From Escherichia coli (GTDB lineage Bacteria; Pseudomonadota; Gammaproteobacteria; Enterobacterales; Enterobacteriaceae), in assembly GCF_029227855.1 (NCBI RefSeq), contig NZ_CP074356.1: a stretch of 64,000 nt of DNA; one strand, written 5' to 3'. Under the pieces are notes generated by a model that saw only the letters and a program-made list of their open reading frames with translations, was not told the DNA's origin and searched no databases. Positions 7,415 through 11,327 of this stretch are shown piece by piece (position 1 is the first letter of the stretch; each line of letters opens with the position of its first letter). Made by a program: the position numbers and the translations under genes.

Positions 7415-8572
7415 GTGACTTATCTACGTATTAATCCTGTTCTGGCGCTGCTGCTGTTGCTGACGGCAATCGCAGCGGCGCTGCCGTTTATCAGTTACGC
7501 GCCTAATCGTTTAGTTTCGGGTGAGGGGCGTCATCTCTGGCAGCTGTGGCCGCAAACGATCTGGATGCTGGTGGGCGTTGGTTGCGCCTGGATGACAGCC
7601 TGTTTTATTCCCGCTAAAAAAGGCAGCATTTTTGCACTCATTCTGGCGCAATTCGTCTTCGTATTGCTGGTGTGGGGAGCAGGAAAGGCGGCGACACAAC
7701 TGGCACAAAATGGCAGTGCGCTGGCGCGTACCAGCCTCGGCAGTGGTTTCTGGCTGGCTGCGGCGCTGGCATTGCTGGCCTGTAGCGATGCCATCCGCCG
7801 AATCTCCACGCATCCGCTGTGGCGCTGGTTGTTGCATATGCAGATTGCCATCATTCCGCTGTGGTTACTGTACTCCGGCACGCTTAACGATCTCTCGCTA
7901 ATGAAAGAATACGCCAACCGTCAGGATGTGTTTGACGACGCGCTGGCACAACATCTGACGTTGCTGTTTGGTGCGGTGCTGCCTGCGTTAGTGATTGGTG
8001 TGCCGTTGGGCATCTGGTGCTACTTTTCCACCGCGCGGCAGGGGGCGATTTTTTCGCTACTCAATGTCATTCAGACCGTGCCTTCGGTGGCGCTCTTTGG
8101 CCTGTTGATTGCGCCGCTTGCCGCGCTGGTTACGGCCTTTCCGTGGCTGGGTAAGCTCGGCATAGCAGGAACCGGAATGACACCCGCACTGATTGCGCTG
8201 GTGCTCTATGCCTTGCTGCCGCTGGTGCGCGGCGTGGTAGTCGGCTTGAACCAGATCCCGCGCGATGTGCTGGAGAGCGCCAGAGCGATGGGCATGAGCG
8301 GGGCGCAGCGATTCCTGCATGTTCAGTTACCGCTGGCGTTACCGGTATTTCTGCGTAGCCTGCGGGTGGTGATGGTGCAAACCGTCGGCATGGCGGTGAT
8401 TGCGGCGTTAATCGGCGCAGGCGGTTTTGGTGCGCTGGTTTTCCAGGGGCTGCTAAGCAGTGCCATTGATTTAGTGTTGCTGGGGGTGATCCCGGTAATT
8501 GTTCTGGCGGTGCTGATCGATGCGCTGTTCGATTTGCTTATCGCACTGCTGAAGGTGAAACGTAATGATTGA
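7415..8572 (+). CDS. yehY: Osmoprotectant ABC transporter permease
   Basis: 385 aa polytopic membrane protein; 7 bp after osmF. Confidence 0.85.
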
Positions 8573-9495: not shown

Positions 9496-10227
9496 ATGAA
9501 GATGTTGCGCGATCCGCTGTTCTGGCTCATTGCTCTGTTTGTGGCGCTGATTTTCTGGCTGCCTTACAGCCAGCCGCTGTTTGCCGCCTTGTTCCCACAA
9601 CTGCCACGACCCGTTTATCAGCAAGAAAGTTTTGCAGTTCTGGCACTGGCTCATTTCTGGCTGGTGGGAATTTCGAGTTTGTTTGCGGTGATCATTGGTA
9701 CTGGTGCCGGAATTGCTGTCACTCGCCCTTGGGGCGCGGAATTTCGCCCACTGGTGGAAACTATTGCCGCCGTTGGACAGACTTTTCCGCCCGTCGCGGT
9801 GCTGGCGATTGCCGTTCCGGTGATCGGCTTTGGTCTGCAACCCGCGATTATCGCCTTGATCCTTTACGGCGTGCTGCCCGTCCTGCAGGCAACACTTGCC
9901 GGGCTGGGAGCGATTGATGCCAGCGTGACAGAAGTTGCGAAAGGTATGGGAATGAGCCGTGGTCAGCGACTGCGTAAGGTCGAGCTACCGCTGGCGGCTC
10001 CGGTGATTCTGGCGGGCGTGCGAACTTCGGTGATTATCAACATTGGTACGGCGACGATCGCCTCAACGGTAGGGGCCAGCACGCTGGGTACGCCGATCAT
10101 CATCGGGCTTAGCGGATTTAATACCGCGTATGTGATCCAGGGGGCGTTACTGGTGGCACTGGCGGCGATCATTGCAGACCGCCTGTTTGAAAGGCTGGTG
10201 CAGGCGCTTAGCCAGCACGCAAAATAA
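9496..10227 (+). CDS. yehW: Osmoprotectant ABC transporter permease
   Basis: 243 aa hydrophobic protein; last gene of the operon. Confidence 0.85.
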
Positions 10228-10315
10228 AGGTATAACCTGCGAGCATGACGCCACCAATTCCGCCTAACGCCATAAACAGGAACAGGGCGATGACCCCAAT
10301 TTTAGCTATGCGCAT
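10208..10315 (-). CDS. yohO: Small membrane protein YohO (35 aa)
   Basis: Reverse-strand [38 protein letters not shown], below the 60-aa ORF-track cutoff; recognised as YohO; 3' end overlaps yehW convergently. Confidence 0.7.
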
Positions 10316-10374
10316 AATGCACTCCTTATGTTAACGAAAGGATTGTACAGTAAAGCGCATTTGTTAACGAATCA

Positions 10375-11106
10375 TTAAATGCCGAGTGGGAAAATATCAT
10401 GGCCTTGTTCCTGCCAACTGGTAAGTTGCTGCTGTTGGGCAGAGGTTCGATTTTCACCGCACCACACCAGCAATGTACGGCCTTCGAACAGTTCAGGGCG
10501 TAGTTGATTGAGCGAGTGGGCGAGGACATCAATGCGCCATCCTTGTTGACTGGCAATCCAGCCCTCCAGCCACAGACGGGTGGTATCGTGAATATTCCAG
10601 CCAACCACCAGCGCATCTTTACCCTGTTTTTTACGTGCCGAAGCCAGACAAATGGCGATGTAGTTGATCAGTACGCCGTCGAGGATCGCCAGCAGCGCCT
10701 GGAGAGTCGGTTGTTGGCACTGAAGTCGTCGGCGCAGAGGAATAAACAGATGCGTGGTGAGTGTCTGGGCGGGGTAATCCTGACCGCGCTCTTTGATCCA
10801 CGTTCGCAGGCTATGCAGATTGCCGCTTTGCAGGTAAGTCAGTAATGTTTCTTGCTGATCGCGCCAGCCGTTCTGCACATCAACATTTTCATTACTGAGC
10901 AGCATTTTAACTTTGCTGACCTGCACGCCGTTGTCGATCCAGCGTTTGATCTCGCGGATCCGGTCAATATCGGCATCGTTGAACAGCCGATGGCCGCCGT
11001 CTGTCCGTTGCGGTTTCAGCAATCCGTAACGCCTCTGACACGCGCGTAACGTGACAGGGTTAATATCACAAAGCAACGCCACTTCACCAATTGTGTAAAG
11101 CGCCAT
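10375..11106 (-). CDS. mlrA: MerR-family transcriptional regulator MlrA (csgD activator)
   Basis: 243 aa; N-terminal MerR HTH (YTIGEVALLCDINPVTLRACQRRYGLLKP). Confidence 0.9.
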   Translation of the reverse strand: MALYTIGEVALLCDINPVTLRACQRRYGLLKPQRTDGGHRLFNDADIDRIREIKRWIDNGVQVSKVKMLLSNENVDVQNGWRDQQETLLTYLQSGNLHSLRTWIKERGQDYPAQTLTTHLFIPLRRRLQCQQPTLQALLAILDGVLINYIAICLASARKKQGKDALVVGWNIHDTTRLWLEGWIASQQGWRIDVLAHSLNQLRPELFEGRTLLVWCGENRTSAQQQQLTSWQEQGHDIFPLGI

Positions 11107-11327
11107 CGTCTCACCCTTGCTCGCGAGGTCCCGGTTTAACTTTAGACGCAGTTTTGCGAACCAGGTAGTTTTGCCCGTTTTTTGTGCATCTATAGGGTGA
11201 TTTTATTTTTGCCAGGCGATTTTGAGTGATCGTACTCACGAATTCTCATTTTTCTGCAAGAGTTCAAAGAAAGTTAAACGCAGGCAATGTATGTTACGCG
11301 TTTTAAAGGGAAGTGTGGTTTGCGGGT

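Follow-up and report, generated by a model that had tools for sequence, protein, structure and literature searches.

The window analyzed here is a 64,000-nt stretch of Escherichia coli DNA, in which RefSeq places osmF, yehY, yehX, and yehW in that order, converging on yohO and mlrA, which are followed by btsS and btsR (Table 1). A listing of the open reading frames (ORFs) in the window contained an ATG-started ORF of 35 codons plus a TAA stop on the minus strand, directly opposite the end of yehW. The encoded peptide is very hydrophobic, with a GRAVY of 1.58 and a value of 2.41 for its best 19-residue Kyte-Doolittle window, and contains 0 acidic residues. The first-pass annotation had described a hydrophobic 35-aa ORF on this strand, too short for a list limited to 60 aa, and had stated that it overlaps the last 20 nt of yehW convergently. 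The description agreed with the ORF listing, and the extent of the overlap proved exact. The shared 20 nt consist of 17 nt of yehW sense codons followed by the yehW TAA, and both stop codons fall within them: the yohO TAA complements the yehW sequence cTTAgc, and the yehW TAA complements the yohO sequence tTTAtt.

Table 1. Features of the yohO locus, in positions of the 64,000-nt window
Feature	Position	Strand	Basis
yohO CDS	10208..10315	-	ORF listing, NF010225, RefSeq, K-12 b4542
yohO/yehW reading-frame overlap, 20 nt, both stops included	10208..10227	.	ORF coordinates
Shine-Dalgarno AAGGAG, 6 nt from the yohO ATG	10322..10327	-	Sequence and cross-species upstream set
Predicted -10 hexamer TACAAT	10342..10347	-	Conservation; predicted transcription start near 10335
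TTAACA element, part of the TTcatTAACa block, 14 nt upstream of the -10 hexamer	10362..10367	-	-10-aligned consensus, position histogram
Second TTAACA element, between the -10 hexamer and the Shine-Dalgarno sequence	10329..10334	-	Conserved; 33 nt from the first
yehW, permease, last gene of osmF-yehYXW, convergent partner	9496..10227	+	ORF listing, RefSeq
mlrA, upstream of yohO on the same strand, 59 nt from the yohO ATG	10375..11106	-	ORF listing, RefSeq

ORFs of this size are frequent by chance (in or extending into an arbitrary 5-kb stretch of this DNA, 77 ORFs of ≥20 aa were counted), and length alone therefore proves nothing. What lifts yohO above the chance level is its family HMM score together with cross-species conservation, a Shine-Dalgarno (SD) sequence, and a conserved -10 hexamer. 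The peptide matched the NCBIfam equivalog NF010225 ("protein YohO") with 80.1 bits, against a curated cutoff of 57 bits (E value, 8.8e-23), residues 1 to 35 aligning with positions 1 to 35 of the 35-position profile. Its translation is identical to that of b4542, the yohO gene of K-12 MG1655 (NC_000913.3), and the coding sequence with its flanks and upstream region is identical to the K-12 sequence at 250 of 251 nt. In K-12, b4542 is annotated as "UPF0387 family protein YohO" and has the same 20-nt overlap with yehW; the protein, its 35-aa length, and its position between mlrA and yehW also are the same, and no difference was found. A 351-nt query around yohO matched 5,423 of 5,426 complete E. 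coli genomes. The ten genomes listed among the matches all carried the RefSeq features yehW, yohO, and mlrA under the match, and five of these were 100% identical. Pfam family PF27791 (UPF0387_membrane) is assigned in the precomputed annotations of the YohO homologues P0004 and P0015. A search of YohO against our local copy of Pfam-A gave nothing significant, the best hit being a sub-threshold match to B12D; the PF27791 model probably is newer than that copy. The ORF is the catalogued E. coli gene yohO, a member of the UPF0387/YohO family, and is already known. Its identification as the known small protein YohO in the first-pass annotation is thus upheld by the NF010225 match, the identity with b4542, the RefSeq annotation, and conservation in Enterobacterales. 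The two points on which that identification was said to be open to refutation, a peptide unlike YohO or a lack of conservation, were examined, and the peptide both matches YohO and is conserved.

To what extent YohO is conserved was assessed in two ways. When 1.84 billion representative proteins were scanned with HMMER, without recourse to a pattern, only 17 representatives were returned at an E value of ≤1e-3, and the intact homologues found in this way, including P0004, P0014, and P0015, share the core GGI(G/S)GVML(A/V)GY. With so few representatives and a common core, YohO is a narrow family. Matches to a DNA pattern back-translated from the core motif were found in 113 genomes when one genome per species was searched. 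This pattern fixes codons 18 to 28, so that conservation of the core in those loci is partly circular and only the HMMER scan is unbiased. The 113 genomes are nearly all Enterobacterales by name, and one record titled Chryseobacterium looks mislabelled. The genera represented include Escherichia, Citrobacter, Salmonella (S. arizonae), Kosakonia, Raoultella, Buttiauxella, Cedecea, Atlantibacter, Franconibacter, Siccibacter, Mangrovibacter, Erwinia, Dickeya, Brenneria, Lonsdalea, and Sodalis. An intact ATG-started ORF of 34 to 40 aa was present in 111 of the 113, giving 77 distinct proteins.

At the codon level, the median pairwise dN/dS of yohO was 0.19. For codons 2 to 17, which neither the pattern nor the overlap covers, the pooled pN/pS was 0.52, with pS saturated at 0.65. 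The entropies of the three codon positions over the same codons were 1.10, 0.57, and 1.53, a profile that reads as the signature of a coding hydrophobic segment. In an alignment of 30 sequences, residues G18, G19, I20, G22, V23, M24, L25, G27, and Y28 were invariant. Across the Enterobacterales, selection on the amino acid sequence of YohO is purifying.

Published data indicate that the gene is expressed. Ribosome profiling had been proposed as a check in the first-pass annotation, and translation of YohO is indeed reported by this method in a preprint (bioRxiv 10.1101/2020.05.05.079178). The protein has been detected in E. coli by top-down mass spectrometry (PMC12529367). In Shigella flexneri grown without oxygen, yohO mRNA was approximately 8-fold downregulated (log2 fold change, -2.96), and no FNR effect is listed (PMC4229854).

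The sequence upstream of yohO was analyzed in 106 distinct upstream regions, right-aligned on the ATG. An SD core was found at positions -18 to -4 in 100 of them, with AAGGAG in 59. A TATAAT-like hexamer, scored as a match at 5 or more of 6 positions including A2 and T6, started between -40 and -26 relative to the ATG (mode, -32) in 101. The hexamer was a perfect TATAAT in 67 of the sequences and is TACAAT in E. coli. It is kept in Mangrovibacter, Entomohabitans, Shimwellia, Brenneria, Lonsdalea, and Sodalis, where mlrA is not found upstream. Since the hexamer is conserved even in species without an upstream mlrA, we infer that yohO has a promoter of its own, which is here a predicted one. yohO would then not be merely the tail of the mlrA transcript, and read-through across the 59-nt spacer may contribute to its expression. 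The -35 region is weak, and a generic promoter scan of the region did not call the yohO promoter, because that region is poor. In the -10-aligned consensus, the hexamer also is flanked by two conserved elements, namely, a TTcatTAACa block located 14 nt upstream and a second TTAAC on its downstream side, before the SD sequence. The upstream TTAACA was considered as a -35 hexamer and rejected, since a 14-nt spacer is too short.

Membrane association of YohO is attributed to Hemm et al. (2008) in bioRxiv 10.1101/2020.05.05.079178. An AlphaFold2 model built from the 30-sequence alignment comprised two helices, residues 3 to 18 and 20 to 34, separated by a break at G19 (pLDDT, 87.4). This model, like the hydropathy and the lack of acidic residues, is consistent with an integral membrane protein, and it suggests that YohO is a single transmembrane helix of approximately residues 3 to 34, kinked at G19. 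None of the 77 distinct YohO proteins contains an aspartate or a glutamate; the net charge is +1 to +3 at the N terminus and 0 to +1 at the C terminus. According to the positive-inside rule, the more positive end of a membrane protein faces the cytoplasm, and the N-terminal charge excess therefore weakly favours an N-in/C-out topology with R2 and K5 at the cytoplasmic N terminus. The nearly invariant center of the helix presents two small-xxx-small faces, G18-G22-A26 and G19-V23-G27. Such faces are typical of tight helix-helix packing, and those of YohO most likely would pack on a second transmembrane helix, which may belong to a larger membrane protein or to another copy of YohO.

We obtained no match of any PDB chain to the YohO family profile, and a Foldseek search of the AlphaFold2 model returned nothing; YohO thus is not seen as a subunit of any solved complex. 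None of the papers and experiments available gives a function or a partner of YohO. Several small single-pass membrane proteins serve as accessory subunits, namely, AcrZ with AcrB, KdpF with KdpABC, and CydX with cytochrome bd. YohO is of the same size class; like them, it is predicted to have one transmembrane helix, and its gene carries a ribosome binding site of its own. Unlike them, it is not cotranscribed with a candidate partner, and it has no sequence or fold match in solved complexes. The likeness to AcrZ, KdpF, and CydX is one of functional analogy only.

The arrangement of yohO and yehW was compared across species. Of 91 scored loci with a yehW-like neighbour, 90 had a tail-to-tail overlap, with a length of 20 nt in 50 loci, 26 nt in 32, 23 nt in 7, and 17 nt in 1. 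All of these lengths are 2 mod 3, and the phase is accordingly fixed, with yohO codon positions 1, 2, and 3 facing yehW positions 1, 3, and 2. The sole exception was Sodalis, in which the yehW-like gene lies 10 nt away and there is no overlap. Two further loci, identified by an exact-protein look-up, have overlaps of 26 and 20 nt; they lack mlrA, and the upstream genes are btsS and a TonB-dependent receptor gene. The overlap is kept also at loci without mlrA, and of the two junctions of yohO, that with yehW is thus the older and the more stable, compared with that to mlrA. The overlap itself is ancient. We also noted that retention this close to universal could exceed what passive locking would produce.

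yohO also was found with neither yehW nor mlrA: in Dickeya, Brenneria, Lonsdalea, and Erwinia, the sequenced flanks of the gene lack yehW. In Brenneria, the genes preceding yohO encode a regulator of the AraC type and an exporter of the LysE type, and those converging with it encode a NUDIX protein and a GH3 (bglX-like) glycosidase. The Dickeya gene is located between a DinG-like helicase gene and a GH3 gene, and in Erwinia yohO has a DUF3833 gene on one side and an MFS transporter gene on the other. yohO, then, does not depend on yehW. The yehW operon begins with osmF in RefSeq E. coli, and bglX presumably lies just beyond osmF on the E. coli map. On these grounds, the GH3 neighbour in the Pectobacteriaceae suggests that yohO occupies the same ancestral site there and that the yeh operon is missing from it.

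In order to determine where the two E. coli transcripts might end, the region was analyzed by a terminator scan and RNA folding. Neither revealed a credible intrinsic terminator for yohO or yehW before the partner gene (z-scores, -0.8 and -1.1); a single stem inside yohO was at chance level. Since the reading frames overlap and neither gene has an intrinsic terminator ahead of its partner, the yohO and yehW transcripts must overlap as antisense RNAs. The untranslated RNA that follows the yohO stop is rich in C and poor in G (C/G ratio of 1.3 to 1.8 over 300 nt), which is compatible with Rho termination limiting the antisense reach. In Dickeya, which has no overlap, a GC-rich hairpin and then a T-run directly follow the yohO stop.

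The first-pass annotation had suggested possible transcriptional interference between the two genes. The transcript overlap that this presupposes is catalogued: ExcludonFinder lists yohO-yehW among 165 convergent excludons of E. coli MG1655, a class defined by transcript boundaries that overlap in 50% or more of the 58 MG1655 RNA-seq samples (PMC12288877). The entry records overlapping coverage and not reciprocal expression, and the suggestion is borne out to that extent. With frames that share 20 nt and a published RNA-seq overlap (PMC12288877), the pair belongs to the convergent excludons by transcript overlap. Like the other members of the class, in which it is itself catalogued, it consists of convergent genes with overlapping transcripts. 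The excludon concept, however, entails mutually exclusive, RNase III-dependent expression, whereas yohO-yehW is known only as a transcript overlap. Furthermore, it is the reading frames that overlap here, and not just the untranslated regions.

Taken as a whole, these observations are best explained by a genuine, independently expressed yohO that has its own promoter and encodes a transmembrane helix engaged in packing, with the overlap as a by-product; we assign this explanation a probability of roughly 0.92. According to this explanation, yohO, downstream of mlrA on the same strand, would be transcribed from the conserved TATAAT-like promoter. The product would be a single inner-membrane helix that packs against another transmembrane helix, as an accessory or modulatory subunit. 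The yohO and yehW transcripts would overlap as antisense RNAs in an excludon-type arrangement. The overlap itself probably is a locked-in by-product of gene packing, with at most a modest regulatory effect.

Other accounts of the gene and its product were considered. The locus might be only a noncoding mlrA 3' region, or an antisense RNA to yehW, that carries a spurious ORF, in keeping with the frequency of such lengths by chance and with an ORF end that is antisense to yehW. We consider this reading refuted, and its chance of being correct is next to nil: the HMM match is strong, third codon positions dominate the variation with dN/dS well below 1, and the ORF, SD sequence, and start codon are conserved in lineages without yehW, in addition to the detection of YohO by mass spectrometry and Ribo-seq. 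An Rfam search of positions 9800 to 10800 found no family, and an RNA-only function of the locus was considered and rejected. The type I toxins Ibs, Ldr, TisB, and Hok are small hydrophobic peptides with antisense control, and YohO resembles them in being small and very hydrophobic, with an mRNA overlapped by antisense transcription. It could, by that likeness, be a peptide that damages the membrane and is restrained by antisense RNA from the convergent operon. This was rejected as highly improbable, since YohO, unlike those toxins, is translated and detected in ordinary cultures (PMC12529367), and its overexpression appears to be tolerated, an overexpression screen having yielded an ASKA yohO clone, induced with 0.1 mM IPTG, among its growing candidates (PMC10299036). 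yohO also is a single-copy, vertically inherited gene with synteny conserved across an order and with a near-consensus promoter and SD sequence, which is unlike tightly repressed toxin genes. Nor does it have a dedicated antisense small RNA according to Rfam and a promoter scan of the region: the one promoter-like site on the plus strand (positions 10290 to 10318; 9/12) compares with 1.6 expected, and there is no above-chance antisense promoter. Many bacterial small membrane proteins, such as KdpF and AcrZ, are transporter subunits, and yohO adjoins yehW in almost all Enterobacteriaceae loci, including those with btsS or a TonB-dependent receptor gene upstream. YohO might be a dedicated accessory subunit of the glycine betaine ABC transporter OsmF-YehYXW, or a regulator of it, the glycine-rich helix face of YohO binding the YehW/YehY permease. 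We regard this as improbable. yohO is convergent to the operon and is not cotranscribed with it, and the same core occurs in Dickeya, Brenneria, Lonsdalea, and Erwinia beside unrelated genes (LysE, NUDIX, GH3, DUF3833, and MFS). The adjacency would be explained by shared ancestry plus the overlap, and we found no structure or paper linking YohO with YehW or YehY.

The expression of yohO likewise can be viewed in other ways. The gene might be mainly the distal member of an mlrA-yohO operon, expressed with mlrA, which we take to be sigma-S dependent. The two genes are on the same strand, the gap between them is short and conserved (51 to 60 nt in 55 of 78 loci), and the 59-nt spacer in the window contains no terminator-like structure. 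Against this, the TATAAT-like hexamer keeps a fixed spacing to the ATG in 101 of the 106 upstream sequences and is present also at loci without an upstream mlrA, which makes the operon reading rather unlikely. A further view is that the overlap is a regulatory device that renders osmF-yehYXW and yohO mutually exclusive. Stress-induced transcription of osmF-yehYXW would cross yohO and its promoter, yohO transcription would run antisense into yehW, and RNA polymerase collision and cleavage of double-stranded RNA would follow. This functional excludon is consistent with the presence of the overlap, in one phase, at 90 of 91 loci and at the two further loci without mlrA, with the lack, on both strands, of an intrinsic terminator ahead of the partner gene, and with membership of the pair in the MG1655 "excludome" (at least 50% of 58 RNA-seq samples; PMC12288877). 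The catalogue, however, gives overlapping coverage only, and C-rich RNA after the yohO stop is compatible with early Rho termination. In Sodalis the yehW-like gene lies 10 nt away with no overlap. The arrangement also is common, as 165 convergent pairs satisfy the same definition; rearrangements cannot easily pull overlapping frames apart, so that conservation can be passive; and yohO is retained in lineages without yehW. For these last three reasons, we rate such a switch as unlikely. A combined reading, in which the overlap, retained in one phase by about 90 Enterobacteriaceae species, is a switch coupling YohO inversely to OsmF-YehYXW, or YohO is a subunit or regulator of the transporter, and in which the TTAACA pair around the -10 hexamer is a regulator-binding site, commands little of our confidence.

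With yohO regarded as an independently expressed gene, much of what is described here was already known: the gene is in RefSeq, the family has NCBIfam and Pfam models, the protein has been detected by Ribo-seq and mass spectrometry, and the overlap is catalogued as an excludon. The present analysis adds the antiquity and the fixed phase of the overlap, a conserved predicted private promoter, the paired TTAACA elements, and the occurrence of yohO without yehW in the Pectobacteriaceae and Erwiniaceae. The overlap also has a practical consequence for genetic work, in that a clean deletion of E. coli yohO must spare the last 17 sense nucleotides of yehW.

The overlap between yohO, which encodes a 35-amino-acid small membrane protein, and the convergent permease gene yehW was compared in the window (positions 10208-10227) and in 90 related loci. 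The overlap lengths were 17, 20, 23, and 26 nt, differing by steps of 3 nt only, and the relative phase of the two reading frames was unchanged in all of these loci. The length of the overlap follows the C-terminal variants of YohO, which end in …RAG, …HAGS, or …RGGVG.

The 3' side of yohO was also inspected in loci without yehW (locus handles, e.g., L025, denote hits of a core-motif pattern scan with one genome per species). In Dickeya undicola (L025) and Dickeya oryzae (L016), yohO overlaps no neighboring gene, and the sequence immediately past its stop codon contains a GC-rich hairpin with a T-run on its 3' side (AACCGGC…GCCGGTTTTT). The Enterobacteriaceae have no such hairpin/T-run terminator because the corresponding sequence encodes YehW. 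In Brenneria alni (L064), yohO and a convergent putative NUDIX-family open reading frame (ORF) share an apparent 20 nt at their 3' ends, the same length as the yohO/yehW overlap in the window. In Brenneria sp. hezel4-2-4 (L083), yohO and the putative NUDIX ORF are 19 nt apart.

Coordinates of features in the neighborhood of yohO (window positions unless indicated)
Feature	Coordinates	Strand	Details
yohO/putative NUDIX-family ORF pair, B. alni (L064)	7442-7549 and 7530-8132 (oriented)	convergent	
Paired TTAACA elements	10329-10367	-	upstream-region conservation
-10 region, TGTACAAT in E. coli	10342-10349	-	
Promoter-like site ATGACC-17-CATAAT, 9/12	10290-10318	+	inside yohO; generic promoter scan
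btsS longest ORF	11313-13013	+	GTG start at 11313; 566 aa

Directly upstream of the -10 region of the predicted yohO promoter is mlrA. The -10 hexamer is bracketed by two copies of TTAACA with a spacing of 33 nt, and both copies are retained in most Enterobacteriaceae yohO upstream regions. The upstream copy forms part of a TTcatTAACa block and lies 14 nt from the -10 hexamer; this is too close for a -35 hexamer, and that assignment was ruled out. The paired elements could represent a regulator site or a 5' untranslated region element. The E. coli -10 region, TGTACAAT, may resemble a half-site of the palindrome described as the MlrA box at the csgD promoter. This likeness may be a coincidence, because most other species whose yohO upstream regions were compared have TATAAT at this position.

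A generic promoter scan of positions 9800 to 11400 returned a single match, the plus-strand site inside yohO, which is directed antisense to the 5' end of yohO and to mlrA. This is not above chance for the region scanned (1 site found versus 1.6 expected). Genomic SELEX has located an RpoE-holoenzyme binding peak (type D; intensity, 4.0) at K-12 W3110 coordinate 2214150, inside a gene, in yehW between yohO and yehX (PMC5493296).

Among complete loci, the YohO frame was without a proper ATG or N terminus only in Citrobacter amalonaticus AUH_CA_2023_1 (L041) and Enterobacter sp. EA-1 (L063), through an apparent frameshift or substitution, and these copies may be pseudogenes or assembly errors. 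In a third locus (L100), the frame is incomplete only because the stored sequence ends within it. In Trabulsiella odontotermitis strain 01 (L071), yohO is intact and the yehW match covers residues 1 to 98 only, suggesting that part of yehW has been deleted or rearranged beside a retained yohO.

The record entitled "Chryseobacterium sp. 18061" (L112) carries a typical Enterobacteriaceae btsS-mlrA-yohO-yehW-yehX locus and, therefore, probably is mislabeled or contaminated. A metagenome-assembled genome labeled "Proteobacteria bacterium" (L010) is Kosakonia-like, and a contig of "Citrobacter freundii M-21" (L102) encodes a YohO of the Atlantibacter/Siccibacter type, with Ser as its last residue.

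There is also a minor ambiguity in the start codon of btsS: the RefSeq start lies 15 nt downstream of the GTG, at the equivalent of window position 11328, giving a protein of 561 aa.
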